Positions 1 to 60,916 of a stretch of DNA of 64,000 bases are shown here, piece after piece. The position numbers and the translations under genes are program-made. Positions within the stretch are counted from its first letter, which is position 1. Each line of letters begins with the position of its first letter. The notes beneath the pieces are model-generated. The model ran no database searches. It was given only the letters and a program-made list of their open reading frames with translations, and was not told where the DNA came from. Origin of the DNA: Lama glama (lineage: Eukaryota); the NCBI GenBank assembly GCA_028534125.1, contig CM052816.1, forward strand, positions 79,734,001 through 79,798,000, in the 5' to 3' direction.

Positions 1-91
1 ATTTCAGTCATGCTGTTGCTGTGAAGTGAGTCAGAAAGAGCATCTCTTGTTTCATCATCATTGAGCTAAACCAAGTCATTTCCTCTTTCAG

Positions 92-153
92 CTACAGAAC
101 TCTTCTGTGCATGGAGATGAACACTAAGGATGCTTTCCACATGAACCTTGAAG
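92..153 (+). other. PRLR: PRLR non-coding exon 2 (5' UTR)
   Basis: Acceptor tcctctttcag at 81-91 and donor AAG|gtaagg at 153/154; 62 nt. The sequence ...gatgctttccacatgaaccttgaag matches my recollection of the human PRLR 5' UTR immediately upstream of the ATG exon. Exon 1 variants lie upstream of the window. Confidence 0.85.
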
Positions 154-392
154 GTAAGGGGAACTTGATGGCGAGCTCCCTTGCTTGTCACACCGCCCGT
201 CTGTCCTGCTATCCGTTTCATCGAGGCACCGGCAAGGACTCAACTCTTTTGACTCATAGAGAGAATAAATCCAAACCAGTCAACATCCACTTTGTTGCAT
301 TGTGCTATTCTCAGAGACCTTTTCTAGCTCCCCCGCCTGTCCTACCTAGAAAACCCTTCTCTGTTTTTCTCAAAGAAAAATACCAAAACTAT

Positions 393-3210
393 CTTTTTTA
401 TTGAAGTATAGTTGATCTACAATGTTGCACTGGTTTCTGGTGTACAGCAAAATGATTCAGTTATACATACATATACATACACATATTCTTTTTCAGATTC
501 TTTTCAATTTAGGTTATTACAAGATAATGAATATAGTTCCATGTGCTATACAGTAGGACCTTGTTGCTGATTTTATATGAAGTAGTGTGTATATGTTAAT
601 CCCAAGCTTCTAATTTATCCCTCCTCCCCTTTCCCCTGATATTGGTAACCATAAATTTGTTTTCTATGTCTGTGTGCCTGTTTCTGTTTTGTAAATACGT
701 TCATTTGTATCATTTTTTTTAGATTTCACATGTAAGTGATATTGTATGATATTTGTCTTTCTCTCTCTGACTTACTTCACTTAGTATGATAAACTCTAGA
801 TCCATCCAAGTTGCTGCAAATGGCATTATTTCATTCTTTTTTTATGGTTGAGTAATAAATAGATGTATCTTCTTTATCCATTCATCTGTCAACAGACACT
901 TAGGTTGCTTCCATGTCTTGGCTGTTATAAATAGTGCTGCTATGAACACTGGGATGCACATATCTTTTCGCTTTAAAGTTTCCGTCTTTTCTGGATATTT
1001 GCCCAGGAGTGGGATTGCTGGATCATACAGTAATTCCATTTTTAGTTCTTTAAGGAACCTCCATACTGTTCTTCATAGTGGCTGTACCAATTTATATTCC
1101 CACCACTAGTATAGGAGGGTTCCCTTTTCTCCACACCCCCTCAAGCATTTATTATTTGTAGACTTTTTGATGATGGCCATTCTGACTGATGTAAGGCTAT
1201 ACCTCATTGTAGTTCTGATTTGCACTTCTCTAGTAATTAGCAGTGTTGAGCATCTTTTCATTTGCCTGTTGGCCATCTGTATGTCTTCTTTGGAGAAATT
1301 TCTATTTAGGTCTTCTGCCCTTTTCTTGATTGGACTCTTTGGTTTTTTTGATGTTGAGCTGTGTAAGCTGTTTGTATACTCTAGAAATCAGTCTCTTGTT
1401 GGTCACATCATTTGCAAATATTTTCTCCCATTCCATAGGTTGTCTTCATTTTGTTTATGGTTTCCTTTACTGTGCAAAACTTGTAAGTTAAGTAGGTTCT
1501 ATTTGTTTATTTTTGCTTTTATTCCCTTTGCCTTGGGAGACTGACCTAAGAAAACATTGCTACATCTTATGTCAGAGAATGTTTTGCCTATGTTCTCTTC
1601 TAGGAGTTTTATGGTGTCCTGGCTTATATTTAAGTCTTTAAGCCATTTTGAGTTTATTTTTGTGTATGTTGTGAAGGAGCGTTCTAACTTCATTGATTTA
1701 CATGTGGCTGTCCAGCTTTCCCAACACTGCTTGCTGAAGAGACCATCTTTTCTCCATTGTATATTCTTGCCTGCTTTGTCAAAGATTAATTGACTGTAAG
1801 TGTGTGGGTTTATTTCTGGGCTCTCTACTCTGTTCCACTGATCCATGTCTGTTTTTGTGACAATACCATGCTGTTTTGATTAATGTAGCTTTGTTGTATT
1901 GTCTGAAGTCTAAGAGGGTTGTGCCTCCAGCTTTGTTGTTTCCTCTGGATTGCTTTGGCAGTTCTGAGTCTTTTAAGTTTCTGTATAAATTTTAGGGTTA
2001 TTTGTTCTAGTTCTTTGAAAAATGTCCTGGGTAATTTGATAGGAATCACATTAAATCTGTAGATTTCTTTGGGTAGTTGGGCCATTTTAACATTAATTCT
2101 TCTACTCCAAGAGCATGAGATATCTTTCCATTTTTTAAATCATCCTCAGTTTCCTTTATCAATGTTTTATATTTCTTAGCATATAAGTCTTTCACTTTCT
2201 TGGTCAAGTTTATTTCTAAGTATTTTATTTTTCTGATGCAATTTTAAAAGAAATTGTTTTTTCACTCTCTCTTTCTGATATTTTATTATTAAAGAAATGC
2301 AACAGATTTCTGTATGTTAATCTTGTATCCTGCTACCTTGCTGAATTTCATTATCAGTTCTAGTAGTTTTTGTGTGGCGTCTTTAGGGTTTTCTATATAT
2401 AGCATCATGTTATCTGCATATAATGACAATTTTTCTTTGTTTCCAATTTGTATACCTTTTGGGTTTTTTTTTCCTTGTCTGATTGCTGTGGCTAGGACTT
2501 CCTATACTATGTTGAATAGAAGTAGTGAGAGTGGGTATCGTTGTCTTCTTCCAGATTTTAATAGGGCTGTTTTCAGCTTCTCATTGTTGAGTATTATGTT
2601 GGCTGTGGGTTTGTTATAAATAGCTTCTATTATGTTGAAATATTTTCCCTCTATACCTACTTTGGTAAGAGCTTTTATCACGAATGGATGTTGAATTTTA
2701 TCAAATGCTTTTTCTGCAACTAGTGAGTGATCATGTGGTTTTCGTCTTTTCTTTTGTTGATGTGGTGTATCGCATTGATTGATTTGCATCTGTTGAACCA
2801 ACCTTGTGACCCTGGGATGAATCTGACGTAATCATGTGTATGATTCTTTTTGTATGTTGTTGGATTCAGTTTGCTAATATTTTGTTGAGGATTTTTGATC
2901 TATATTCATCAAAGATATTGGCCTGTGATTTTCTTTTCTGGTGGTGTCTTTATCTGGTTTTTGTACCAGGGTGTTGGTGCTGCATAGAATGACTTTGAGG
3001 ATGTTCCTTCCTCTTCAGTCTTTTGAAAAAGTTTGAGAAGGACTGATACAAGTTCTTCTTTATATGTTTCATACAGTTCTCCAGTGAAGCCATCTGGTCC
3101 TGGACTTTTGTTTGCATGGAGTTTTTTTTTTTTATTATAGATTCTGTCATACTTCTAGTGATCAGTCTGTTCAAATTATCTATTTCTTCTTGATTCAGTT
3201 TTGACAGTAG
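393..3210 (-). mobile_element. 5'-truncated, decayed LINE-1 (ORF2 RT/C-terminal part plus 3' UTR)
   Basis: Minus-strand ORFs with L1 ORF2 peptides ([46 protein letters not shown]) broken by stops and frameshifts. Target-site duplication caaaactat at 384-392 and 3211-3219. Confidence 0.95.
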
Positions 3211-4073
3211 CAAAACTATTAACAGCTGACATCTTAGTAGTGAAATTATGGGAGATTTCAATTTTCTCCTTTTTTTTGTGCTTGAGAGTTTTTCAATAAT
3301 GACTGTATTTTTTAATCAGAAAAAGAAACATTATGTTTGCTTTTATTTTCTTAAGCAGCTCTGCATAAATTCTTGCCAAAGCTTTCTGGCTGCTTCAGCC
3401 CCCAATATTGTCACTACTACACACCCCCTCCCTCCCAGCCCACTGACAGTCCTTATAGAACGGCTCATATATGGTGGGCTCTGCATCTTCCCCATCTACT
3501 ATCGGCAAGGAAAATCACTTCATGGCCCCATGACCTACTGAGCCCCAGGCACAATCTCCTGGCTTGGCTCTCACACTTTGTTGATTACTTTTCCCCACCT
3601 ACAATATTCTATTACTCTTTGGAGTTAAAGTTGTATGGAAGCACTTAACTCACATATTCCCCCTTTATGCCAACTCAAGTATCACGCCCCAATTTCATCT
3701 TCTTAGGATACTAGGCCCAGCTGATAACTAGGTCATGAAGTATTAAGAGTCAGCTTGACAGATGGAGAAACCAAGCCTCAGGGCTTGCCTCTGTATATAC
3801 TACACTGTAAAATGGGATCTAGACCCTCTGAAACCAACTTGACACATGTAACCCTGAAGGTGAGCTCTTTCTTTCAGAGGAAGTTAAGGACTCATGAAGA
3901 CATGAAACTAACTGGGTCATGGGTGGAAGAGAATTCTGGCCAAAATTACTTGAGGATTTCCTGAGGTCACTCCAGGGTACTTACTAGTCTTTCAACATTG
4001 AAAAGTGATAGTTCTTTGAGGACCATCTGACACTTCAGTGTCAAGAACCAAGCCTGAGCTTTCCCTCTGGGAC

Positions 4074-4371
4074 AGAGTTTCTCAACTTCAGCACTGTTGG
4101 CATTCTAGAACAGATAACTCTTTGTTGTGGGGGCTGTTTTGTGCATTGTAGGAGTCTTAGCAGCACCCCTGGTCTCTACCCACTGAATGCCAGTAGTCCA
4201 CCACCCCGCCCAACTTGTAACAGCCAACAGTGTCTTCAGATGTTGGCTACAGATCCAGGGAGGACAAAATCTCCTCCTACCCCAAGTAGTGACAATAAAA
4301 TTATGTTTTCAGACATTGCCAAATGTCTCCTTGGTTGGGGAAGGCAAAATCACCCCCAAAGAAAATCCCTG
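4074..4371. mobile_element. MER20-like hAT-Charlie DNA transposon with internal duplication
   Basis: gtttctcaac...ataactctttgttgtgggggctg...cagacattgccaaatgtc matches my recollection of the MER20 consensus. Confidence 0.8.
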
Positions 4372-6009
4372 CTCCAAAATTACCTCAACCCAGCAAGAAC
4401 TTTTATTTTTCATGCAAATAGACTGAAATGTATAGTGTCCAGAGTAAACATTAGCAAGGACTGGCAGAAGGGGTGCCATAAATTGTCAAAATGCTTTGGC
4501 ATGGCAGGGCCCTGTGGCTTAAAGCTCAGAAGTATTTGGTAATACTGCCATCAAACCAGACCACCAGCTCCTCTGAGTTTCTTTCTTCTTCCTGGGTTTC
4601 TGCCCTTTCCTGGGTTTCTTCCTGGGCATGCCAAATGCCTCATGAGATTTGCTTGAATGAAAGGCAAATGAGAGAGAACAGGGCAACACTGAACACTCAA
4701 GCAGTCTTTTCCTTCATGAGGTCCAGAAAAGTACAGTGTGGTCGGAACTGCATTGCAAAGCCCCAGAGGGACTTGGCTACTCTTTTTTTAAAATTTATAT
4801 GTGTACTTATTTATAAACTACATTGTTGCATGAAAGATTTGTGACTTAATTGTCTCATTTCCTTCATAAAATTGGATATTGTTTAAACACATATGTGTGG
4901 GTTGTGGGCAGTGGCTTAACTGGAAATCCTTTTTCTATCCCTCAAAGAGTGTATGGTAAGTGAGGTGGTGGTAGCAGCTTTACCTGGGGACCAGTTGGCA
5001 AACCACAGCCCCGAAGGTAAATTCCAGAGCACCAGAATTGATCTTCACTCTTCCTGCTCATCTCCAAGTGTGCCTCTTCTGTCCCCAGCTGATCTTCCCC
5101 TGCATTCACACCTACTATCTTCCTCCCTTTACCCAACTTAGTATTTGGTGTGAAAGTATTTGCTTCTGATGCCAGTATGTATCTGTGAAAATACAGGCAA
5201 GAACTTGAGAGCAGTCTTGTGGTCATCCAAGAGAAGCAGAAACACTGCTCAGTGTCAGGGTAAAAGGAATATTCAGAGAGCAGTGTTCATAAAAGAATTC
5301 AGAGGGAAAATCTCTCCCTTAAAGGGGGGATTAGAATTAAGAATAGAATTGCAGTTCCTATCTGGGACCCTGCAACAGTGCCACAGTCCATGGTGTGGCT
5401 TCCAGTCTGGCTTCTGGTGTCTTTGAACTGTTAACCCTCCTATCCTGTCCCAGTGGTAATGATCTCTCCCTAACAACCACTCCCTGGCACCTCTTCCCCA
5501 GGGCGGAACAGAATGCCAGTCTGAATAGCATGCCAGGTTCTTTTGCAAGAGCTTGATATCCTTTGGGCTCTGCCCATTCCAACCCTCCTACCTCCAGCTC
5601 TTTCCCAGGCTCCCATCTGCATATCTTAGACCTTAACTCTCCCCAGATTGCAAGAAGCTAGGAGGAACTTTGAAGCAGCCCAGGGCACTGGGAAAGATGT
5701 GCCCATCCAGAGAGCATGTTTTGATGTGAATCTAAAGCTCCAAGCCCGTAATCTTTTCACCCACCATGCTGGCCTGTCAGAATCCTTCAGATGCCTATCA
5801 TTTGAGCCTTTGCATTGACTGAACTATGGCATTGTTCAAAATCTGCATTTACCTAAGGGGGGAAGACCTTAATTTACAGATAGGAATTTGTTTATCAGAT
5901 TAGCTTGTTGGTACTTCTCTAAGAAGAGGGCCTTGGAATTGGGGGCACAAGACAAGTTAATTTTGACTGGAGTGGAAAGACTAAAACAAGTGAGATACTG
6001 AGCTTGCTC

Positions 6010-6170
6010 TAGACTTGTGTTGTCCAATACACTGGCTACATGTGGCAATTTTAATGTAAATTCATTGAAATTAAATGATATTAAAAACTCAGTCTCAACC
6101 ACATAAGTGGCTATGGCTGCCATATTGGACAGAGCAGACATAGACCATTTCCATCACTGTAGAAAGTTCT
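6010..6170. mobile_element. MER3-like hAT DNA transposon fragment
   Basis: gttgtccaata...gctacatgtggc...catattggacagagcagacatagaccatttccatcactgtagaaagttct. Confidence 0.7.
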
Positions 6171-9100
6171 TCTGTGTGGCACTCATCTCGATGGAGGTGG
6201 TACTGCCAATGGAGAGTTCTGGGACACAGAGAGAGCCTAAAATCACCAGCTGTGTTGGGAAGGACAGAGAAGAGCAAGAGAGAGAAGAGAATTCCAAAGA
6301 GATAGCGAAAGGGCATCAAAGGCAAACTTCGTGTGCTTTGTCAAGGACCCAACCTTGAGCAAACGTGCATCAACCCCACCGCAAAACTTTTGATGTTGAC
6401 ATCTGCAAACACAGAAGCAACCAGGGTTGGCTTTGGGCTCCACTTCCTCCATTGTATGGCCCCTGGGATCTGTGGGCTCCTTGTGAAGAAGCAGGAGACC
6501 CTGTCCTGAACCCTGAGCTGAAAGAAGGGCAAAGGAGTCACTGGGCGACCAGCCAAAGGGAAATCATCACTCCGGTGGCACATGGCGGCCCCTCAGTATC
6601 CAAGAGTCTCCCCTTGGGAGTTCCTAAATCAAAAGACATTGGAGGGGAAAGGAGCACCTTCTCCATCTGGAATTCGACCTCTGCTCAGAGTCTGGGGGCA
6701 TGGAGGATCTGAGGAGCTTTGCCCCCACTGCTGACTCTTTCTCATTCGCGTAGCACCTACAGTCCCATGGAGCATTTTCACAGTATTAATTCATCTTGCC
6801 CTTACAATAGTTGGCTGAGGAAAGCAGGACAGATGGACCCTCTCAACAGTTTCTAGTAGAAGAAATGCATCTCAGAAAGAGGAAGAGAGGATCCAAAGTC
6901 ATTCTGACTCAGAAATGGCAGAATGGGCTCTAGAAACCACCGTCCGATTCTTTCTGCAGCTTGCATTGCCTCTCAGGTGATGAGGGTTGCTTTGTACCCC
7001 TCCAGATCCCCAAGCATGCCAGCCCCAAAGGGTGTGACCTCCATCCGGATCATGCTGCAACTTCATTTCACATCCAGTCCCAAGCCCTGACTGTCTCCTG
7101 GATGCTTTGTTACCCAATGACCCTTGCAAGTGGCCAAGCAGAGGGCAAAGTGGACTCCTGGCTGGAATGAGAACACCGATGTGACTTTTCCCGGAAGACG
7201 CCGCCCAGAAAAATACTGATGGCACTAATGCACCAGAGCTGCTGAGTCTGTTTTCCAGTGCACAAGACACCAGAAGATACAGTTTTCCTGGCCCCCAAAA
7301 CTCTAAGTCTGCAGTGGGAGACCTCGGAACGTGCCAAGGGCTTTTGTTGGCTAGAAAAGGATCCAGTAAACTGAATTAGATTAGTCCATCTGTAGGACTT
7401 TCAAATAGTTTGTGGCCAAATGTTTATGACTTTTCTCAAATTTAAGAGGATTTCTCACTGTATGAGAACCATTTATATACATGGCTAAACAGCCAATCAG
7501 ATTCCATGTTTCCTTTGACACAACAGGCATATAAATCAACAGATGTGCCGAGTAACCTTTGACTTCCACTCTTAGTGAGCTCTAGCACTAAATCAGAACT
7601 AAAAAGAAAAAATCTACAAGCTAATCAAATAGATAAAGCAATAGTGAGGATAGTGACAAAAACAAGATGGTTACTATGCATGTGCCTAATAAAGCAATCC
7701 CCCTGGCCACTCGCTACTTTGTGCCTTCCTTTTACACCAGCATCTTGATTCTTCTCAGTCAGTGCCCACTTTCTCCATCTCTAAGCCACTAGAGTTGAAA
7801 ACATAACTATTTCATCAGTTAGACCAGGGAGCTGTCCAATCTTTGATGAAATCATCCCCCAAAGCCAGACGCCCGGCTAAAAATGAATTAAACAGTCGGC
7901 GTGTTACACTCACCATCCTGAGAAAACCAGTTCCAGGTTGCTGGCACCAGCTCCCAGTACCAGCAAGAACCCAGACTCTTTCCATTTGAGGAGATGTCTC
8001 CTCCCCACTCTCTCTTTCAACCATGGACAAAAATCTTTCCCAGCAGACCCCAGAAGATTTCTGCCATATTTCAGTGGCCAAACTGGGTGGGATAACCACT
8101 CCCAAACCAATCACAGACAAACCAGAAATGAGATTACCACGGTTACCTTAGACTGATGACTCTTTATCCCCCAGACCAAGTAGCTGATAGCAGACAAAAC
8201 TGTTTTGCTCTGTGCAAAAAAGAAGAGGGTGTGTGTGTAATAGTTGTTGGAAAAGCAACCAGCAGTGTCTACCATACCCAGTTCTACGCAGGGCAGTGAA
8301 TGGAGAAAGAAGAGGGGCTTTGTACTCTTCATCCCTGAGGCAGACCCCCAGGGGAGCCCCGAACCACCCTGAGCAGGTCAGGTCTGCCCACTGTTGACTC
8401 TCCTGGCCCCTGAAGAGCCCCTTTTGGCCACTGCATCAAAATGCTCAAAATCAACATGCTATAAGTCACACCTTTCAGGCGAGATCATGTGCTATCCAGA
8501 CAGCTCTGCCAAATCAGGGTCTCATAAGCTTATGCGTTTTTTACAAGTTTCTCTCTCCTCTACCAGACGAAGTACTAACGGGGTTGCTTTAGAGCAATGC
8601 TAGATTCTCAGGGCCCTGTCCGTGCCTGCTGCTCAGTGGACATTTGTTAAAAGTTGGATGGGTGAATGGATAGGTGTTTCAGCCACCAAACTAGGTCGAC
8701 CCTGAATTTTTCTGAAAATGCATTAAAAGTAGGTAAATCCTAGTTTCTGTTCCTCTTACCATTTTCACTCTGCACTGGGAGTATTTATTGCTTTACTCCC
8801 AGGTCCAGCTTACCTGTGGTCCCTGGCCATTACGTCTTTGATTGGACAGGTTGCTTTTCTGCTAAGAGAGGGCTCCTGAGAGAAGCTGAGTAAAGGAGAA
8901 GGAAGAAAAAAAAAGAGTGAATATAAGCCAGTAAGAGAGACAAGTAATTATCTTGCTGGATAAGTAGCCCAGATGATTTGAATGAAGAAGGAATTTTGAA
9001 AGAACATATTGTAAATGAGTGAGAACAAGTAACTAAATCAGGTAGAGGCAGGCTGTGCTGGTACAAGATGGAGCAAGATGAGGGGAGAGAGAGGGGCTTG

Positions 9101-9924
9101 GCACTGATGTGGGTTCAAGATGGCACAGAGATGGGCAGACCTCCAGGCCATAGGCAAGGGGGTGGGGCTTTCCGCCAGCTGCCCTTCTTCCCCACCACCC
9201 TTTGGACTTTCAGATTTTCCCACTTTATCCACCCTTTTCCCCTCTTTTCCTCGCTTTAAACTTCCAGATCCTCTTGCTTTGTGTTTGAAGGATGAACAGA
9301 AACTGAGGGGCCAGGGCGAAGCAAGTCCCCAGCTTCCATGAGAGAATCCTGCTGAACTTCTTAAACTCTCTTTAAAAAGATGACCCCCACCCTTCTCTGA
9401 GGCTCTGTAAGAGTTTTTCCATGAAATTGGCTTTCATCCACTTGTCAGAAGCTTAATGACAAATAATGGCTCATGGGCCCTGGGTATTTTAAATAACCCT
9501 AAAGTGGACATAGTAATGGAATTCGGAGAAGTGGAGGGAGGTCTTAAAGACATGTGAGCAGGACATCAAAAACTTGAAATCTTTATTGCTCGAGAGATGG
9601 GGCCCACTCTCAGCCACACACAGATGAACATTGGAGGCTGACTGTCAACAGCTGAAAATTTTGCCGTGACCCATATAAGCAATTTCTGTAACCCACCCTA
9701 ATGGGGACTTTTTCCATGTATTTACACCACAAAAGTCCAGGTTTTCATTAAGGGATTGTTTTTATGGTGTTAACATTTTTGTTGAGAATTTTCCCCCTCA
9801 ATTACAAAAGTAATAACTTTTTATTTTATTTAGGTATTTTAGTAATATTTTATTTTATTACAAAAGTAATTTTTTTAATTTTACAATCATCCTCCCAGAG
9901 ATAATTGCTGCTAATACATTGGGG

Positions 9925-9984
9925 TAGGGTGTGTGTGTGTATATATATTCCGGTATATATATATGTCAACATATTTTATAAGTG

Positions 9985-10015
<31 letters not shown>

Positions 10016-10040
10016 TTATTTCCTTCCAGTGTATATATAT
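9925..10040. repeat. (TG)n/(TA)n compound microsatellite at the edge of an old L1 fragment
   Basis: Directly visible dinucleotide runs. Confidence 0.9.
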
Positions 10041-13000
10041 TTCTTCTGTGCACATGTGGAGTTACCTATATTGGAATTGAAGTCAAACACATCCACTTTC
10101 TCTACCCAGTTATCATTTTTCTTTCATGTTTTCATATCTTTAAAATTTTTTATCACATTAGTTTAAAGATTAAATAATATTTTGTTGTAGATTTGTACCG
10201 TGATCTAGTTAAATAAGCCTTTATGATTCGATATTTAGATTTTTTACAATATTCTCTTTTTTTAAAGTAGCACTGGGGGGAATTTTGTGTGTGCACAGGA
10301 TTCTTTTTGCACATCTCTGTTCTTTTGGGATAAATTTCTAGAAGTGTATTTTCTGATTCAAAGTGTGTCTACAGTCTTAAGGCTTTTAGTATGTATTACC
10401 AGGAAGATTGTATCCATTTACACTTAAACAGCAAGGTGCTGTTCCCGCCTCCACCTTCGAACAACAAGACACATTTGCAAACTCAGTGATACCACTGTGA
10501 AATCTCAAAGGGTTGGGAAAAGACTAAAATAAAATATTTTAATAAGAAAATACTTTGAAAATTGGAAATCCTATTAAAACCCACATTGCCCTTACTATCA
10601 GTTCTTAGACTACCCAAGATAGGTAAGATACCATCTGTCTCAACCACATGCACCAATGATTTACAGCCCATTAGAGACTATAATCCTTACCAGCTTTCCC
10701 CTAAATATGGCTGATACCCAACAAATGTCATTTATTTAAAATCATGTATTGAGTACTTTCTATGCATTGAGCTTTCTATTAAGTATGAGGAATATAGAGA
10801 AAAAAATAATCAACACAGATCGTGACATCACTGAGCTACTAGCCTGGGTGGGGTTTGGGAAGAAAGATAAGTAGGGATTCACTATCAGTTCTATGATAGG
10901 GTCAGGTCCTGGGTTCTCTGTAGACAAGCATCCCTCACTTTGGGGAAACCCAGGGAAGTTCCTGCCTGAGGGAAGGAAGCTGAAACTGAGGATAGGAGGC
11001 AGCGGGCTTCGGAGTGGGCGGCCATGTGCCAATCCTCATTGCTTCTGAAACAACATCTTCCCAGCATGTATACGTCTGCGTAGAAAGGGAGCCATTTCTG
11101 TGGGGCAAAGACTTTCACAAGCCACATGGTGGGGAGGACAAGACCCCCGAGGGGCATACTTTGAGAAACACTCGATGGTGTTAATTTCTTTAGCTATCAG
11201 CCTGGCGTTTTTAATCAACGAGACACACAAGCTGAGGCTGAGAGCAGGATGGTGTGGGACTGAAGAGGGGATTTGAGTGCAGGGTGGAAAGGAGATAAAG
11301 GGGCAAGACAAGGCAACTGGCAGGGAGAGGAACTACAGAGGAGAAGACAGAGACTCTTAACAAGGAATTTGGCCAAGTGTCTGCTTTGAAATGTGGTACC
11401 TGTCTACCCGCAAAATCCTTTCTCTTGTTAATACATGAAGTGATGAGGAGTTAAACGTGACCTCCCGATGGGTGAAGAGTGAGAACTAAGACTGCCTGTT
11501 GGAGGCTACACACTTGCTTTCCTCGTCCCTCATTCTGTAAGCATCTAAGTGCTACTGGAGACTTCTCTTAAGCAGGAATCCTCTCTTCTGAACTGCACAG
11601 GATATTAAAGTGAACATTATCTGCTATTCTTTCCATATTGGCTCACTGACCCCACTTGAGCTCTGCGTGCCTGGTACATGCACACCGTTTGAAAGAAAAG
11701 GCAGGATTATAATGGGTCTTTTAAGCAATCAAGGACATTCAGAAATGCAGCTGAGAAATCCAGGTGCGATCAGACCCTCTGCTTAGGTACTCCTAGGAGA
11801 AACAGCCCAAGCCACTTACGTTTTGACCTGTAAACAAGCTGACAATTGGCAGAACTGGAGGAATCAGCAAAGCAGCAAACTTCCCTTCCAAATTATATTG
11901 TTCTTATTGTAAAATTAAAGTTAATTTCTATCTCTGAAGCTGAGTTGAGAAGCATGGGAATGCAACAGTGGGATGTCTGCCACACCAAAAAATGAAAATT
12001 CCTTATGGGTAATATTCCAAGAAGATTGTTTACAAAGATAAGGAGAAATTGACTAAGATTCTAGATATTGACTTCCTAATCTTTTTTTTCCTTTGGTCTC
12101 AGATAGGGTTCTCTGGAAGACACACCATCAACTATATGTTGTGCAAAGAGGTGACATTATTACTGTAAAGCAGTGAGTCAACATGATTTACTGGGTTCTG
12201 CCAGGCCAGTGTTATGGTAGCCAAATATGTAGACATTTGCATAGACCTACTCCATTTGCCGTGTGCAGATAGATTGGCACAGGAGCCTAGCAGCCAGTTG
12301 GGAGCTAGGCCTACTGCTTGCTTATGTACACTAATGGGACGGTGGGCTTATTAAGAAATATGTGGAGGGATTCTTTGGTAATTGACAGTAGCACTTCCCT
12401 TTTGAAATGTTAAGCATAGGGTACCCTATTTTCCTAAGTGCAATTGTCTTGCTTTGGGTTACAGAAATGCTTCATTCTTCAAAGCTCACTTTTCCTGCAA
12501 CCACATCTCAGTGGGCTTTGTCACTCATCTGTCCTCAAGTTCAAATTAATGAACACAAACAGCTTTATTGGAGGAATCCATATAAGGTCTCAAGATATAT
12601 CTTGCATGAATATGGTGGGCCTACTGATTAATGGGAAGAATATGTTGTAGAGTTCAAGGTCAAGTGCTTTTTCAGCAGATCTGTGAATCAAAATAATGTG
12701 TAATATATGGCTTTATTAAAATCTTCAGTTAGCCATCCGACAATTGGTGTTGAACACCTGCAGGCAAGTATAATTGTGACTGTTGTGTCGGGGCTGAAAA
12801 TATAGAGAAAGCAAGGCAGGGGTGACTCCCAGACTTTGGTGATAGTATTCAATTTGGAACAGTAGGCTGGATGTCAGAGGCTTCCTTCTTATTAACAGCT
12901 CTTCTACTTGGTTAAAGATAGTAGTACCATCTAAACTAAGCTACACTGATTGTCCTAGAGTATCTGGATTAGTCGTGTTATATAAAGCTGGTCATTATAA

Positions 13001-13966
13001 CATCCAAACTCTGTCTCAGAAGCTTAACAACCAAAGGTTTGTTTCTCACCCATTACAATCCAGTGGCATCAGCAGGGGATGCAGGATCCTTCCGTCCATG
13101 GGCTGTACTAAGCCTTTAAGACTGACATGCTCAATTTCATCTTCCTCTGGACAATAACGGATCAGAGAGACAGAGAGAATCTGAGAATGTGTGAATGTTT
13201 TAAAAACCAGAACTAGACAAGAAGTGTATCATTTCTGCCTACTTTCAGAGGCCCCAACTCAACACCTGATCCTGTCTAACCACAGGACAGTCAGTGAGGT
13301 AAACTACAGCTCTTGTGCCCAGAAAGAAAAGGAGAAGCAAATTCTGATGGACTCTAGAAGCTTCTGCTATGCCTGTGAACGGTCTCCCAGAGTTGTAGCT
13401 GAGGTGGTCCTGCAGGAAGCAGGAGTTAGAGAGGAAAAACGCTTTTGACACATTCTTGAGAATTTCTTCTTAGACACTGCAGCTTTCTCAGATGTGCACA
13501 CAGCCACCCTCAAAGCTCTAAAGAGCCTCCCATCTGGTACTTGGCCAAAAAGCACCTCATCTCTTGAGGCTCCAGTTGCCCCACATGAAAAAGAGACGGG
13601 TTGGATCAGAATTCTTTCAAGTCTTTTGGCTCTTTTTATATATAAAATGCTATGATTCTAGAACTGTTGCTGTTCATTTCCTCCTGAGACAAATAAACAA
13701 AGAGCCAGGAAGCAATGCCAGTTGGTCAATAATTTTTTTATTTCATTTTTTAACTTTCCAAGCCCACATTTCTAAAATTGAAATATACATAATAGACAAG
13801 ATTGTCACCAATATAATAGTGATTATTTTTATGGCAAAGCTGTTTTGCATTTGGATGAACAGCACATACACACACATATATAACACACACAGAGCTTCCT
13901 CTGTGAAATACAGTCTTGTTTTAACAGTCTTGCAAAACATATGTTCTCCTCCTGCTGCTCTTGCCC

Positions 13967-14900
13967 TGTGTTAGTCAGTTCTGCAGTGGTAACAAATGGT
14001 GCCATCTCAGTGGCTTACAACACATTTCCTTTTTGCGCCCTTTACATAAGGATTATGGATCAGCTGTAGGTTGACCATGGCTTTGCTGGGATTGGCTGGA
14101 CTCAGCTGGTTCCACCTGTTTTCTCATTCTGGAGCCCTGACAGAGGGAATAGCCATTGTCTGGGATATCCCGAGGGCATACGGAGAATAAGAGCAAGAAG
14201 CCTTCAGGCAGTAAATACAGTCCCATGCAATTGTTCTTAAGGCTTCATTTGGACAGAAAAAACAGTCACACCCACTCATATTCCATTAACTAGAATTTTT
14301 CACATGGCAAGTTCAAAGTCACTGAGATGGCATGTAAACTCCTCACACAGGGTCCATGTGGTGACTTAAAGAAAAACACACAGTGTAAGAGTAGTGAGTT
14401 TTAGTTTTATTTGTGGACCCTACTGAGGACTATAGCCCAAAAGACAGGCTCTCAGTAGCTCGGAGGGAACTGTGCTGAAGAGGTAGGGGAGGAGACAGTT
14501 TATATATGATTTTTGGCTGGGGTACACATGCAATGGAGCATACCTCTTGTGAAAGATTACTGCTGGTCACAAAGAATGGCTATCTCAAGTTAATGATTTT
14601 AGTGCTTTCCTATGAATGCGAAGATGCACGAATCCGAGGCTATTAAAATTTTTCATGAGATATGCATCTTATTATCTGAGGGAACTGTTTTTCCAAGGCA
14701 GAGCGTCTCACCCTCTTTTTCATCCTAAATTCCTCTCAGGGTGCACTGTTAGTGAATACAGGCCGACTTAATCCTTGTAGAGTTGGGTGGTGAGCAAGCT
14801 CTTTGTTCTTCTTTGTTTACACATGAGTGTGTCCCATGACAGAAGGTGGTGGTTCGTAATCCTATGACTGGGAGGGAGTAAATCGTTGGGGACTGTCATC
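13967..14900. mobile_element. Old MaLR (MLT1-like) LTR interrupted by a younger LTR
   Basis: tgttagtcag...gtggtaacaaat...atctcagtggcttacaaca is typical of MLT1. A second MLT1-like piece lies at ~12970-13370. Confidence 0.6.
14359..14821 (-). mobile_element. ERV1 solo LTR, MER41-like
   Basis: TG...CA termini with 4 bp TSD catg (14355-14358 and 14822-14825); tttatt (antisense AATAAA) near the left end; tactgaggactatagccc and tctcaagttaatgattttagtgcttt resemble MER41-family LTRs from memory. Confidence 0.8.
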
Positions 14901-15412
14901 CAGTCTACTCACACCTCCATTGCCTCCATTGAAATCCTAATTGCAACATTCCTCACGAGAGGAAGCCACTCTACCTTGGCTCTTAGTCCTTGTGCTGTGG
15001 GAAGTTCTTTGACTAGAGAGAGTTAGGACGGAGACGCAGTGAACAATGGGGGAGTGGAGGGATTTTAGCAAATGTTTATGTAGTCCTCATCGTAGACAGG
15101 GCAGTGTTTTAAGCGCATCACAAATACCAATTCATTAAATTCTCATCATAGCTCTGAGAGGTACACAGAGGCAGCAGGGCAGATGGAGCCTGACCAGGGC
15201 CCCCAGGAGGGCCAGGCTAGGGTAGCACAGGAGAGGGAGACAGATGAGAAGAAAAGGAGGAAGGAGGGGAGCCTGGGTTCACAGGTCCCCTCCCAGGTCT
15301 CTCCCAGTTGAAAAAGGCTCCCTGCAGACCTGCCTTCAGCTGGCCTGGAAGTTTCAATATCCCTCGTCTTCCTCTTACATGTGGGGACACTGAGCCCAGA
15401 GAGATGGAGCTA

Positions 15413-15610
15413 AGGATGTGCTGGTAAATGTTGAACAACTGCTCTCTCCAAAGAGGGGGAAAGGAAAGAAGAAGAAATTCCCGCTTACAGCATTTGCCAG
15501 TTCCCGTGGCATAAATACTCCCGCTATGGCTGATTTCAAGCCACCAACACCAAGCCAGCGGGCTTCCAGCTTCCTGCAAAGGTAACAGTTACTCCCCGTT
15601 GTGAGCCTGC
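15413..15610. mobile_element. MER63-like hAT-Blackjack fragment
   Basis: gatgtgctggtaaatgttgaacaac...taaatactcccgctatggctgatttcaagccaccaac. Confidence 0.65.
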
Positions 15611-15774
15611 ACCCCTGGAGAGAGAGTCCCCTTGACCTCACAGCTCCTGAAGCGCAGAGCCCTCCGCACAAGAAATGCCCAGGTCACGTCGGTCCTTTTA
15701 GGAAAACGCCCTTTCCAGGCCCAGAGGGTGGAGGAGCACCCCAGATTCTTGCATCTTCCCATTCATAGGAAAGC

Positions 15775-16200
15775 TGGGCTTTCAAACGTCAGCTTGCATA
15801 AGAATCACCTGAATGCTTGTTAGAAATGCCCCTTTAGGTACAGGCTTGCAACCAGTAGATAAGTAAGTCTTGGAGAGCTTAATGCACAGCGTAATGATTA
15901 TAGACAACAGTGTATTATAAACATCAAAGTTTCTTAAAGACTAGATCCTAACTGTTCCCATCTCGAAAAAGAAATGATCATTATGTGACTTGATAGAGGT
16001 GTTAGCTAATGTAGTAATGTAGTAATATAATATATAAATATATCAAATCAACATGATGTGCACCTTAATCTTATGTAATTATGTCCCAATAATTGTTTTT
16101 AATTTTCTAATTAAAAGAATGCCTCTTCCTAGGCCCCACTCTCTAAGAATTTTGACCTGTTTTATCTGGGATGGGCAGTAGTGCCCAGAACATGCTCTGG
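15775..16200. mobile_element. MER5-like element split by an L1 3' end fragment (~15835-16113)
   Basis: gcataagaatcacctg...gttagaaatgc on the left resumes as ctaggccccactc on the right; the intervening sequence is L1 3' UTR-like. Confidence 0.55.
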
Positions 16201-16961
16201 AAGCAGTGCCTCAAGATATTCACTGCTGCTGAAGGACCGTCCTGGATTCCCCACAGCACCCTGCCTCAGAGCCACCCTTGGGAAAGGGGAGTGTGCTGAG
16301 AGAGCCCTTGATCAGAAAGACAGATGCCCTAGATGGCTCAGAAACCATGGTCTCAAGGTCCCTTGACGTGTCCACCAAGCCATGGGGTTCTGTATGTTGA
16401 AGCTTCCTGAAGGTAGGAGCCAGCCATGAGAAGTCAAAAGCATGGTGTTTAACGACACTGACAGTGGAGCCCAGCTGCAAAGTTTCTCCCCCTCCAGGCA
16501 CTGCTCGCTAGCTGTGGGACCTCGGACCACTCAGGGAGCCTCTCTGGTTCCCAGTCTCATCTGTAAAATGGACATATTCATGGTACTTACATCTCAGTGC
16601 CTGGCATGTAGTACGTCCTATACAAAGGTTTGCTGGCTTCATCACCAGACAGTTCTGAGCACACAGGAGGCTTTTAAGATAAGGTTGTTGGTTTAAACCA
16701 CCTATCCCTTTGAGCTTCCATTTTCTCACCTTTGAAATGGGCGCAATGGTATAGTACTAGTGACAGTAATAGCTTTCCCGTCCACTGCACATGATTATTA
16801 CAAGAGTCACGTGCGATCTGAAGACTGAGTTCCCATTGCTGCTTTGTTGCCTGTGCTGTGTGATAGTGGACAAAGCCAGTTACCTCTCTGAGCCTCCGTT
16901 TCCTCTCCCACCAAGGGGAGCCCCCCCACAGAGGTGGGATAGCATATGTATCAGGTGACCT

Positions 16962-17123
16962 CAGTGGATTCCAACGCTGGCTTTACACTGGTATCATCCA
17001 GAGAGCTTTTTTAAAATTCTCATGTGCCAGCGAGTCCAATTCTGAACCAATTAATCAGAATCTCTAGGGACTTAAGAGGTTCCCTGTGTGATTCTAATGT
17101 GAATTCTGGATTGAAAACCACTG
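16962..17123. mobile_element. MER5-like hAT element
   Basis: cagtggattccaa...ttgaaaaccactg imperfect terminal inverted repeats with a gtgattctaatgtg core. Confidence 0.65.
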
Positions 17124-20100
17124 ACGTCTGTGGGACAGCTTTGTAAACTGCAAAACACAACGTCCAATTTATGGATGTTTTTTGTTCTTAATTGATAATC
17201 TTACAATGAACTAGTTCTTCTGAAATCAGGCCAAAGGGTACTTTCCACCATCTGTCTGAAGTGTGCATTGACTGGAGAGAATTAAAACTCACTCAGTTCC
17301 CATTCTGGCCTTCAGGCCAAGCAGGCTGAGTGAAAACAAGTGTCCCTCAGATCAAAGATGTTGCTGGCATGCTGTGGCCAGTGAGTGGAGTTGGCGTCAT
17401 TGGCTTTGGAAGCCCTGCCTCCAGCCACAGGGAAGCATTCAGTGTTCTGTTTTATTAAGGTGACTCCAGTGCAAAGGCACACACATCACCGTGTGGTGAT
17501 TTACCCCAGCTAGGTTAGGGGCCAGGAGATCTTTCTACTTAAGTCCCCACGTGGAATACCAACCCTGATTCAGCTCCAGTTTGGGCAAATGCAATCTCTG
17601 CTAACTGTCTACCTCTTAGAACACACAGCCTTCATCATGCACAGCACACTCCCTCCCCTTGGACACATCGTCACATAGCAGAGTCTTCAAGAAGTTCTTC
17701 CCTCTGTGAAATATCTGGGATTCACAAGAGAGAGGGAAGGGGCGTCCTGAATCAGAGGTAGATGTTTTCTATCAGGCTCTCTACTCTAATAACATCCACA
17801 CAGCCATGGTGTTCTGATTAAACTGCTGGCCTCTAAGGCGATGGTCGTTTTACATAGAAGTGATTCCCTTGTGGAAGGTGCCAGATGTTTCCCACTGAAG
17901 GATATCTCAAAACAAGGAATGAGGTGGAAACCTGTTTGAGAAGCAATAATATGTAAACTTGATCATTGCAATGGTTAAAAAAAATAGCAACAATGGATGA
18001 CATATGAGCAAGTGTCCTGCTGTGAAATTCTGGACTATGCCTATGGACAGATAAAGATTTCGTGTCAGGTAAATATGTCTGCATGCAACACAGGAAGAGC
18101 TAGAACCTTCACTCCCCACCCTCGGGCCAGGGTTCTCCTCGCCCTGGGTCCCCAGCAGTCAAGGTCTACATTCAAGAGCAGCTGCCATGTCACTCATTCT
18201 TTCTGCAAACAGTCATCGACCATTGACCTTGGGCAGAGCTTGTACAGCAGTGAATGAAACAGCTCGTTCCCGCCGCTGCTCTGCCCACCCTGAGCAGATT
18301 AAGCCCTCTGTTTTCCAGACTAAATGTTGGCACTCTGTGTTGGAAAGACAAGCCAGATTCTTGGAAATCCAAGGGAACCTGTGGGGTTCTCTCCCTGTTG
18401 TTTTAGCCTCAGGCCATCTAACAGGTGGAGGAACAGGTAAGGAGACCCAGGCGACAGAGGACCCAACCCAGTAGACCCCAAAAGAAGCAGCCGACACAGG
18501 TCCTAACATTGAAAACAATGGGTGAATGTATTTAAAATCTGTTTGCAAGAAATGAGATTGTTCGCATTTTTAGGATGAGAAAGGCATTAGAAGTTTAATT
18601 TGCATTTACAGTCAGGAGCTATGGCAGGCAGTGTCCTAATCATTTATGGTAGAAATTGGGCAGAGGCATCAAGTGGGTGTGAGGCGTGCAGGGCTCTCCT
18701 GCCACCTGAGACTCGATCAGTCTTGGCCAAATCCAAGGTTTACCAAAACCTGGAAAACATAAATGTTCATCAAGGGGGTTGACTAGGTAAATAAATTATG
18801 ATCTTTCATTCAATGTAGTATAAATGAAGATGAATGAGGTGACATGAAAAGGAATTCTGTAAAGGGACGTGTAGCAACAAGGATAAATCATCCAGCAACG
18901 TGAAGTGAAAGAAGCCAGGCACGCACACTCAGATGCCCGTTGTGTGATTCTATTTCTGTCAAGTCCAAAAGTAAACAAAACTAATCTGCTTAAGTGTTAG
19001 AGGTCAGAAGATGGCTTCTATTGGGAAGAGGTGGGCAGAGCCTGGGGGCAGATCCCCGGGGCCTTTCTGGGATGCCATTAGTGTTCTGCTTCTTGACCTG
19101 GTTGAAATGTAGACATATTCACTTTGTGATAATTCATTGATCAGAATACTTAGGATTTGTGCTTTTCACCCAGGTGACAATCTTTAAAGAAATCCAAGTC
19201 TTGGATGGGGTCCTGCTTGTCCATGGAAATTGGGTTTGCGAAAGCTAGGTAGGGTCCTGCCCAGCATGCTAGGTCCATTTCTAGACTCTGGGGAACTGAG
19301 TAAAAAAAATCTGAGCCGAGCATTGGGGCAGTCATAGCAGATGAGGCTACACCAGGTGAGGACTGCATTCGCTTCAGGACCACCTGATCCCAGGTCTTGG
19401 GAGCAAGTCCCACAAAATCATCGCACTGAGATTTCTGGCGTTTGAGATTGGCTCAGGAGTGGGTGAGCCTGAATGTGCAGATGGAGTCTACCAGAGGAAG
19501 CTCAGATCTGTTCTTTTTAATTGTCAAGAGACCGCACTGCCCCCTCTCCTATGACGCGCCATCCCTACTAGGGACAGTGGGATCAGCCTAGGCTCTGGGA
19601 CTGTGGCCCTGCTTTGGCATCCAGAGAGAGTGGCTCTTGTTTCTCAGAAGAGCAAGCTACTAGGACAAAACTTGCTAGAGTTCCTTCTCAACTGTTGGCC
19701 TGTGTAGAAGAGACTTGGTTTTAATAGAAGGGAATGATGAAGGGAAGTTTTTGGAGAGAATCTGAACAGAAACTACACTGATGAAAGGAGGAAGAAGGGG
19801 GCTTTGTGGGGTCACACCACAGTGGGACACAGCTCCGTGGGAAGGCATATTTGAATAGGATAATGGGAGGCGCACAAAGATGGGAGAGTCCCTGAGGGTG
19901 CAGAAGCAAAGAAGCCAAGACAGCTGGTCCTGGGCCAGGTGCGGGGGCTGCTGGCTTGCTAGAGACCTGCTCTTTAGTTTTAAGTCTTGCATTTTTAAAC
20001 CACAGTCACACTCAGAGAGCTATTGAGGAATGAAGCCAAGATCATTGTCCTTCGATGGGGGTGTGGGGCTGACGTTTTCCTAATTGGTCTCCAAACATTT

Positions 20101-21336
20101 GGAGCCATTTACCACTATAAGCATCACTAAAAGCAGTCTGTGGATGCTCTTTGAAACCAGCCCCAGGTGGAGCAAGTACTCTTGATTAAGATCCTGCTTA
20201 GGAGTGGACTCAGAGAGACAGAAACCAAATTTATCCCCAGCTTAGTGTCCACTAGCCATAAAAAATGATCAGTGGACAGCAGGAAGGGTGCCTAGTGCTG
20301 GGAGAAACCACGGCAGATGACCAGGTTAGCATGCAGTGTAGCATCCTTAGGCGTGGGCAGCTGGGATTACCTTCCTCTCTGAAAGTTTACTTGCCCCACT
20401 GTGTTTGTCCTACTGGAGGGTAAGACGTAGTGTGAGGTGGGAATCATTATCAAAACACAGCAGTGAGACCACTATGAGTGTGTCCGGTGCTCTGACACAG
20501 GAGTTTCAAGGCATCAGAAAGTGCACATGGCTAGTTACCAGATTCTGGGATATCTCAGGACATCCAAGAGGAACTTATTTCTTTTTAGTTTATAAAATGC
20601 TTCCTGACAGCATTTTTATTGGAAAACTTAATGTAGGAGAGTTTCTTTGAGCCTGGACCAGGGTACCGGGAAGCATAAGTGATGACAAAATCTGCTCCTG
20701 TCTGCCCCACCCTGCTCCCCATCCGGGTGTTTCTTTTGCAAAACACGCGGAACCCTTACTTGGCAGAGCTGTCTGGATAGCACATGACCTCACCCGGAAG
20801 GTATGACTTATAACATAAGGATCTCGAGCATTTCAGTCCAATGCCCAAAAGAGCAGGGACATCTCAGTAAAGGATATTACAGAACTTCAGCCAGTGGGTA
20901 AAATTCTCTTCCCCAAGCCAGGCTGAGATCACCAGATCTCCAGGACGAAGAACTCTTTCAGGCTTATATGGACCTAGTGAAGCGGGGTTAGAACAGCGGA
21001 GCTGAGTTCCTCGGGCACAAGTCTGGCGGGTGATCTCGCTGAGCCCCAGCTCTGCCTCCTTCACACCTGCTCAAGGCTGGGCGTGCTGCTCACCCCGGCT
21101 CCGCTGCTGCTGTCTCCCCCACGTCCCCCACAGAAGGGGGAGTAATCGCACATTCATCACACAGTCCACATAGCAGGATGATTTATCAGACGCTCGCAGA
21201 TTTGCCAGATTTCTCTCCCCGAGTGTCACGCGGCTAATAATTTTCTAAACCTCTCTGCACTTTAATTTCCCTGTCTGTAAAAGGAGTTGGTAATAATCCA
21301 TGCTACTCACCGGGCTATTGTGAGGGCTCAATGCAA

Positions 21337-21570
21337 CTTTTTGGTATTGAAGTGTAGTCAGTTTACAATGTTGTGTCAGTCTCTGGTGTACAGCACGATG
21401 TTTCAGTTATACATGTACAGACATGCATTCCTTTTCATATTCTTTTTCACTATAGGTTACTACAAAATATTGAATATAGTTCCCTGTGCTATACAGTAGA
21501 AACTTGTTACCTATTTTATACATCGTAGTTAGTATCTGCACATTTCCAGCTCCTAATTTATCCCTTAACC
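21337..21570 (-). mobile_element. Short L1 3' end fragment. Related copies lie at ~29563-29765 (+), 49180-49335 (-), 55040-55300 (+), 58365-58590 (-) and 59375-59690 (-)
   Basis: Shared ttgaagtatagttgatttacaatgttg...ggtgtacagca...ataggttattacaag...gttccctgtgctatacag motif, also seen at the 3' end of the L1 at 393. Confidence 0.8.
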
Positions 21571-22164
21571 ACCCGCTAGGTGGTTAAGACACTCAGCACA
21601 GGGCCTGGCCTCTAGTAAGTGTTCCATACGTAGTAGAAGTGACTCGAAACCCAGTATGAGCCCTTAACCACTTGATTTAAGTTAGATTACCCTGAGCTTA
21701 GTATGTGCCACCTGGAAGGGCTTATGGAAGGAATCCGGGAAAAGCAACTGTAAGGTTCCCAAAGGACAACATCCTGGCTGCCACCCAGGAGCCCCAGTAT
21801 AAGGGAGTCACTTGATGGTACCTTATACCCCAAATCTCTACTGCCACTAAGATTTTTATTTCCAAGAGGGAGTAGTAGCAGGTGGAGAAGCTTCAAGAAG
21901 TTCTCTGTTAGGTGGTGTCCGGCTGTCAGATGGAGACCTGCCCTCCGGCTGGTCTTTTCAGGGCTCATCAAACAACACTCAGTCATTTCAGAAGTCCCAA
22001 GATGGGCAGCCGTGCCACTGAATGCCCTTCCCCTGATTTAAAAAAACCATAACATTTAGAGGGAAAATGTAAGCCATGTGTTTCCTAGAATTTATCACAT
22101 CTTTTGTTTTCAGAGAGGTGTTTGGAGTCCAACTAGACTAATGAACCTTTTTCAAGTGTCTTGA

Positions 22165-22282
22165 GGGGGAGGGCATAACTCAGTGGTACAGTGCATGCCT
22201 AGCATGCATGAGGTCCTGGGTTCAATTCCCAGTACCTCTACTAAATAAATAAACCCAATTACCTCCCTCCATTAAAAAAAAA
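22165..22282 (+). mobile_element. tRNA-derived SINE (camelid Vic-1-like)
   Basis: A-box taactcagtggta, B-box gggttcaattccc, A-rich tail; TSD gtgtcttga at 22156-22164 and 22284-22292. Confidence 0.85.
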
Positions 22283-23095
22283 TGTGTCTTGAAAAATCCT
22301 TTTTTCTTAGAAAGACATTTAGAGGCTTTGAAAGTTGCTCCAAGGGCAAAAAATAATCATATTAATAATAAATTGCTCAAAATGCTCAACCCCTGCAGGT
22401 TCAGAATTTGCTTAATACTCCAAACCCAAAGGACTTGAATTATTACCAGGATTTGTCATTTCTTGCTTATGGGGTTTTTCCAAAGAGGAGAAAAAAACTA
22501 CATGGAGGTTCACTAGAGTTGACTGTGTGGTTCACGGCCGTGCCCATCGCCCAGAAGACTTCCAGCATCTTCTCAGCCTGAACCTTCAGGGGAAGCGCCC
22601 CCTTACTTGTGGCATCCGTGAGACCAGGCTGGAGTTAAACTGAACGCACTGACTTTTCAGCCTGGTTTATTTTTGGCTGGTGGATCATAGCTGCCCCAGA
22701 ACAGTTCTCTTGTAGGGCGTACAATCTGCGTCACATAAAACGGGTGATATATTGTTAGGTGACTGAGATGTAGAGAGAGCAATTTTCCCTTGGGATGTGT
22801 GCAAAGAAGCCAGCAGCGGCCAGCTGCCCTTGAACGTGGTCATCTGGTGACCTCTAGTGGTGGAATTTTTCCCAGCATGTGTGCAGCTATGCTTCTGAGC
22901 CAAGCCATCCTTGTTACATTTTCCTGCATTCCTTTCCTCCTGTTTTGTTATTCACGTTCAGCAAGGAGCAAGAATCAGTTGCAAACACCCAGAATAAAGG
23001 GATGCATGTGCCTAATCAGACTTTCATTTCAAAAAAGTGCCTTCTCTTTCAGTGAATCTCTGATACGGTTCCTGTGGAAAGAGAAGGGAGCCAAC

Positions 23096-37490
<14,395 letters not shown>

Positions 37491-58756: not shown

Positions 58757-58966
58757 GGGGAAGGGTATAGCTCAAGTGGTAGAGTGCATGCTTAGCATAC
58801 ACAAGGTCCTGGGTTCAATCCCCAGTACCTCCCCTAAGAATAAATAAATAAATTAACCTAATTGCCTCCTCCCCACAAAAAAACCCAAAACAAACAAACA
58901 AAAAAAACCTAAATAAATAAATGTTCACTGTTCAAAAAATTTTTAAATAAATAATAAATGTTTTTT
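58757..58966 (+). mobile_element. tRNA-derived SINE (Vic-1-like)
   Basis: tagctcaagtggtagag A-box, gggttcaatcccc B-box, A-rich tail; TSD aaatgcctatacag (58743-58756) / aaatacctatacag (58967-58980). Confidence 0.88.
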
Positions 58967-60805: not shown

Positions 60806-60916
60806 ATTTTTTTTTTCTAAACTTTGCTTTATGGGGTACTGGGGATTGAACCCAGGACCTTGTGCAAGCTAAGCTAAGCTAAGCTAAAGGCTGTACCACT
60901 GAGTTATACCCACCCC
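60806..60916 (-). mobile_element. tRNA-derived SINE (Vic-1-like), antisense, with an internal (AAGCT)n expansion
   Basis: gtactggggattgaacccaggacc...taccactgagttataccc is the reverse complement of the SINE head. Confidence 0.8.

Follow-up and report, generated by a model that had tools for sequence, protein, structure and literature searches.

An old 17-codon upstream open reading frame in the PRLR leader of Lama glama, a probable peptide-independent damper of translation

Does the shared, supposedly noncoding exon of the prolactin receptor gene, PRLR, carry an upstream open reading frame (uORF) that limits how much receptor is made? We addressed this question in a stretch of 64,000 nucleotides (nt) of Lama glama DNA, hereafter the window; all coordinates are window positions, and all features lie on the plus strand. 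According to the gene-structure passages of PMC9520000, exon 2 is common to six human PRLR first exons and is termed noncoding, and initiation is placed in exon 3. An initial annotation of the window had described a spliced 17-codon uORF across exons 2 and 3 that appeared to be conserved with human. We find that the 105-nt PRLR leader contains this AUG-initiated uORF and that it is old, and we propose that it is probably a damper of translation that works by leaky scanning, whatever peptide it encodes.

The window contains the PRLR gene of a camelid. Its exon 10 shares 98% identity with Vicugna pacos PRLR and at most 78% with the other listed matches, and the assembled receptor of 625 amino acids (aa) agrees with the V. 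pacos protein at 619 of 625 residues and with the camel proteins at 608 to 610. The common exon 2 (positions 92 to 153; 62 nt), which has a single match in the genome, was delimited from the sequence, from an in-silico join and from the gene-structure passages of PMC9520000. A pyrimidine tract and AG at 79 to 91 form its acceptor, the boundary of which is presumptive, and its donor is AAG/GTAAGG at 153/154. Intron 2 is a GT-AG intron of 22,899 nt (154 to 23052), and exon 3 follows at 23053 to 23165 with consensus splice sites. The PRLR start (A at −3) and the signal-peptide coding part of exon 3 occupy 23096 to 23165 and end in phase 1. We infer the exon 2/3 junction from the splice consensus, homologous gene models, and the published gene structure. 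A supplementary row of PMC10908861 places the coding sequence start of human ENST00000514088.5 at nt 106, which is the position of the main ATG in the camelid 62-plus-43-nt join. No RNA contigs or reads were placed on window positions 1 to 400 in four of four runs, an empty result that can be false and is not evidence of absence. No CpG-rich 500-nt window passed within 160 kb upstream, and the first exons were not located by that scan.

Joining exons 2 and 3 in silico yields a 17-aa open reading frame (ORF) from the ATG at 111, out of frame with the 625-aa receptor that begins at mRNA position 106. The first part of the uORF (111 to 153), the extent of which is matched by homologous N termini, comprises 14 codons plus 1 nt and ends in phase 1; the second part (23053 to 23063) lies in exon 3 and ends with TGA at 23061 to 23063. 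A spacer of 32 nt (23064 to 23095) separates this stop from the PRLR start. With its AUG and in-frame stop both 5′ of the main AUG, the element is by sequence definition an AUG-initiated, nonoverlapping uORF. A second in-frame ATG lies at 117 to 119 and a third at 141 to 143, and a nested, out-of-frame uORF of four codons lies at 130 to 144. The nucleotides at −3/+4 are U/G for the ATG at 111, G/A at 117, A/C at 130, and C/A at 141 (weak), with A/A at the main start. Every one of these elements is exactly where the initial annotation had put it. If intron 2 is not spliced, the frame from ATG111 stays open for 97 codons (111 to 404).

Upstream ORFs are common; almost half of human mRNAs have them, as stated in PMC3738444. 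At the ATG density of intron 2, 1.77 upstream ATGs are expected per 105 nt, the probability of at least one is 0.83, and that of at least four is 0.10. Since an upstream ATG is expected by chance, the case for this uORF rests on conservation and not on its presence.

We read conservation from the N termini of 489 PRLR protein models, not from a DNA alignment. Up to 15 members were viewed for each of 29 clusters, a sample that barely touches the primates (167 members) and lists no ruminant. Six of these 489 proteins start with the exon-2 ORF spliced directly to exon 4: canid RefSeq isoform X3 (P0182, P0186, and P0195), rabbit A0A5F9D1W5 (P0371), Tasmanian devil G3W3I2/KAM9095856 (P0382), and opossum A0A5F8HE38 (P0440). 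All six begin at the equivalent of ATG111 and share the 14 codons and the phase-1 end. Identity to the camelid exon-2 peptide is 10 of 14 residues in dog, 10 in rabbit, 7 in devil, and 9 in opossum. Over the five therian lineages, 7 of 14 columns (1, 2, 4, 5, 6, 8, and 12) are invariant, giving the motif M-E-x-N-T-K-x-A-x-x-x-N. In a tblastn search over 186 kb these N termini were placed at 111 to 152, with E values of 2.8e-08 for dog and 0.001 for rabbit and weak values for the marsupials (0.092 for devil and 0.023 for opossum); none of 1,150 other ATG-started 14-mers in the window matches the dog, rabbit, or devil N terminus as well. Region searches with the dog N terminus found no cluster representative carrying the exon-2 start among 134 and 8 proteins; the further cases emerged from the members of the clusters. 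We concluded from the gene models that the start, length, and frame of the exon-2 part are kept across five therian lineages, a conservation deeper than had been claimed.

The additional ATGs fared differently. The models do not support them as a conserved module: among the five lineages, Met3 is found in the camelid only, and position 11 is occupied by Met in the three placentals but by Val or Ala in both marsupials. By back-translation, the nested start is impossible in dog and possible in rabbit, devil, and opossum, and the nested stop is impossible in opossum.

The stop of the uORF lies in exon 3, and its history can be read from protein models in which the exon-3 leader is translated in the main frame. 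Models of human, bonobo, dolphin, panda, pangolin, and Dromiciops give this leader a length of 14 codons plus 1 nt. All six have Leu-Ile at the uORF stop site, and 12 of the 18 codon pairs for Leu-Ile allow the stop; porpoise P0168 has Met-Ile there, which forces TGA. A conserved stop is thus certain in porpoise and compatible with six of six other models, human included. The initial annotation had named a human uORF of the same length, frame, and stop; our comparison with human covered the geometry of the leader, which fits. It had also suggested following start, stop, and frame across mammals together with dN/dS. The protein models show the start and frame retained and are compatible with a retained stop; in place of dN/dS we used a control, the main-frame reading of the exon-3 leader, a frame that a stop in exon 2 closes in the camelid.

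This control speaks against selection on the peptide. The closed frame is identical to a marsupial model at 10 of 14 residues and to human at 9 of 14, whereas the uORF matches the two marsupials at 7 and 9 of 14. Most residue changes in the uORF, radical ones included, are single-base neighbors. Because the closed-frame leader is equally conserved, the uORF peptide looks unselected. A uORF that acts through its nascent peptide, by ribosome stalling or by sensing of a signal, might have been expected from the seven invariant columns, which cluster in the first eight residues. Stalling peptides, however, are usually conserved near their C-terminal end, and here variation is highest toward that end. 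Furthermore, the nested ATG, through its sequence context, explains the invariant Lys6 and Ala8 equally well, and camelid-devil identity is lower in the uORF (7 of 14) than in the receptor tail (226 of 340), the ectodomain (174 of 211), or the control frame. We consider a conserved regulatory peptide very unlikely.

Exon 2 itself evolves slowly. When neutral evolution was simulated on rough branch lengths (3,000 runs over the 13 non-start columns), at least 6 of 13 columns were invariant in 0 of 3,000 runs at the full neutral rate and in 4.5% at half that rate; the exon-2 data fit a rate roughly one-quarter to one-third of neutral. Since the observed invariance fits only a reduced fraction of the neutral rate, exon 2 is, on this simulation, under constraint. 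The constraint might act on the RNA, through splice enhancers, exon definition, or protein binding, with the ATG and its frame surviving as passengers of slow evolution and having little effect on translation. Consistent with this, an upstream ATG is likely by chance, as calculated above, the closed frame is conserved as well as the uORF, and when the rate is set to a quarter of neutral, 38% of simulations keep the ATG in all five lineages; the two ribosome profiling (Ribo-seq) catalogues discussed below, both weak tests, show no call for the uORF among the rows listed. On the other hand, when a leader is scanned, some ribosomes are usually diverted by an AUG that has G at +4, and the position of the stop and the length of the spacer are also kept. 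RNA structure does not account for the constraint, since exon 2 has no stable fold (z, 0.17), and neither does a known RNA family, since an Rfam search of window positions 1 to 22900 returned one tRNA-like match only, at 22169 to 22240. We regard an RNA-level passenger as unlikely, though less so than the other alternatives.

We return to a damper that does not depend on the peptide, which we consider probable. Scanning ribosomes would reach AUG111, the context of which is middling, and part of them would initiate there. Those ribosomes would terminate 32 nt before the main AUG, too near for efficient reinitiation; as a general rule, a spacer of 32 nt is short for that purpose. Because the spacer is too short for efficient reinitiation, the receptor would be made mostly by ribosomes that leak past all upstream AUGs. 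The camelid leader has four of these, two with a purine at −3, and damping is predicted to be stronger than in dog. A transcript lacking exon 2 through bypass would not be damped. Those that skip exon 3 would read from AUG111 into exon 4, giving a receptor without a signal peptide that would likely be degraded.

Several observations count against such a damper. AUG111 lacks a purine at −3. PRLR does not appear in the Ribo-seq ORF tables of PMC10032668, a weak test in which a control recovered one of five genes; the rows listed from PMC10908861 include the PRLR main ORF and no uORF, again a weak test, since even the GHR main ORF is missing from those rows. A species is visible in the protein models only where the ATG and frame survive, and losses are invisible. 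The identity of 10 of 14 residues among placentals is no higher than that of the intron-2 flank, which reaches 75% against a human read-through model, and the constraint on exon 2 could serve splicing. A model that skips exon 3 was seen in 0 of 6 camelid cluster members. Finally, several pangolin models place an in-frame Met two codons ahead of exon 3, a hint that the end of exon 2 has changed there.

Two groups of models bear on the evolution of the leader. In pangolin P0018, P0196, P0198, and P0201 and in Dromiciops P0389, an in-frame Met just 5′ of exon 3 would lengthen the N terminus by 16 to 20 residues; possibly exon 2 has been remodeled there, converting the uORF to an N-terminal extension. 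Murid PRLR models (P0060 to P0069) start at a downstream Met, and the ancestral start is Leu in Mus pahari (P0348); the spacer from uORF to start would therefore be longer in mice and rats.

The same exon-2 frame has a second possible use. Because exon 2 ends in the same phase as exon 3 (phase 1), skipping of exon 3 carries AUG111 into exon 4 (25914 to 26046). In the camelid the exon 2-to-4 join is open and encodes a 616-aa PRLR without a signal peptide, equal in length to canid RefSeq isoform X3; it continues through exons 5 to 10 (27460 to 27629, 31109 to 31278, 32646 to 32787, 34054 to 34153, 34626 to 34695, and 36468 to 37490), which were likewise joined in silico. In four of four exon 2-to-4 models there is no hydrophobic N-terminal core, the best 8-residue hydropathy being −0.66 to 0.35 versus 3.64 to 3.69 for the canonical N termini. 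The transmembrane helix is retained, and its flanking charges favor the normal orientation, which depends on a signal peptide. For this reason the likeliest fate of the skipped product is degradation, which would make exon-3 skipping an off switch.

Alternatively, AUG111 could have been kept for a regulated exon-3 skip that gives a functional PRLR, cytosolic, nuclear, or inverted, with its ligand-binding and signaling domains retained. Nuclear GHR is reported in PMC10409943, gene models from four lineages, placental and marsupial, contain the exon 2-to-4 form, and in the camelid the frame is open and free of a hydrophobic N-terminal core. Against this, a join of two exons has a prior of 1 in 3 of being in frame, the frame was inherited once, and the helix charges argue for degradation. 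The exon 2-to-4 form is known from gene models, and annotation pipelines also attach unrelated N termini to exon 4 (P0026, P0190, P0357, P0394, and P0478), so that these models may be noise. A start retained for the skipped receptor is in our estimation improbable, and we are equally doubtful of the broader proposal that exon 2 serves throughout therians as a coding exon with two uses, which with exon 3 would form a repressive uORF and without it would begin a leaderless, full-length receptor. If that proposal is true, one splice choice would switch a translational brake to an intracellular PRLR, a possible source of nuclear or cytosolic receptor.

The initial annotation had also pointed to transcripts that avoid exon 2, and dolphin gene models contain them: other exons are joined to exon 3 in dolphin isoforms, and one of these exons maps inside intron 2. 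Positions 11451 to 11545 match the exon spliced to exon 3 in dolphin P0169 (tblastn E value, 5e-06), with a frame that is broken in the camelid. A weak match to the N-terminal exon of dolphin P0008 lies at 15526 to 15543 (E value, 0.52), with a TATA-like word just upstream. Both segments are candidate internal first exons that would bypass exon 2.

Other signals surround exons 3 and 4. The end of intron 2 (22906 to 23037) has 75% translated identity to human P0216 and bonobo P0214, which are read-through models, and panda and Myotis models read through too; these possibly represent retained-intron or internal-promoter transcripts. If intron 2 is left unspliced, the main PRLR frame has no stop in the 111 codons that precede its start (22763 to 23215). 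Within intron 3, positions 25067 to 25155 and 25419 to 25510 match the N termini of dog P0183 and pig P0138, both of which continue into exon 4 and lack a signal peptide. The intron also has an ATG in frame with exon 4, located 43 nt ahead of its acceptor (25871 to 25913), and elephant P0026 and Hipposideros P0357 models start at it with 73 to 80% identity; an AG 20 nt upstream of this acceptor may be an alternative acceptor.

Repeats account for further matches. The tRNA-like Rfam match at 22169 to 22240 scores 49.2 bits, and similar copies at 58757 to 58848 and 60835 to 60916 suggest a tRNA-derived short interspersed nuclear element. Dispersed repeat fragments at 393 to 1222, which from their look we take to be L1-like, have copies near 21337, 29555, 49176, 50205, 55114, and 58367 that are 65 to 83% alike. 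The idea that exon 2 is a decayed duplicate of the signal-peptide exon was rejected; 334 and 149 of 2,000 shuffles scored equally well.

Known systems offer parallels. Like PRLR, GHR has multiple first exons. The rows listed from PMC10908861 give an AUG uORF in the leader of GHR, the closest paralogue and likewise a class I cytokine receptor (ENST00000230882.9, nt 65 to 188). That uORF, 123 nt in length, was called from Ribo-seq by several tools, whereas the PRLR uORF is 54 nt with its stop, is split by a 22.9-kb intron, and has no call among the rows listed. EPO likewise has a short uORF on a hormone-axis mRNA, which represses translation and is relieved by ribosome bypass, in the account of PMC3988562; that uORF was demonstrated by experiment and is tied to hypoxia, whereas repression by the PRLR uORF is a prediction from sequence. 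By analogy, the PRLR uORF is predicted to work like those of GHR and EPO. It also resembles the animal conserved-peptide uORFs identified with ESUCA, as presented in PMC7530721, in that start, length, and frame are kept over a wide taxonomic range. It differs from them in that a closed-frame control is equally conserved. We do not class it as a conserved-peptide uORF; it is a real and old example of a very common class.

We found no literature on a PRLR uORF or on an exon-3-skipped PRLR, in a search outside of which lie the subscription journals with most older work on PRLR gene structure. In PMC9520000, the terms "translation," "upstream," and "signal peptide" have 0 occurrences each, and its gene-structure passages describe no exon-3-skipped form. 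Should the skipped form prove to be a genuine protein, the literature searched contains no description of that PRLR isoform.

In lactation, fertility, and breast cancer, sensitivity to prolactin is determined by how much PRLR is present. Control of PRLR is treated as promoter choice alone in the gene-structure passages of PMC9520000, and a conserved uORF that begins in the shared exon would add a translational layer to it. Such a uORF would make exon 2 variants interpretable in people and livestock and would provide a simple target for increasing the amount of receptor made.

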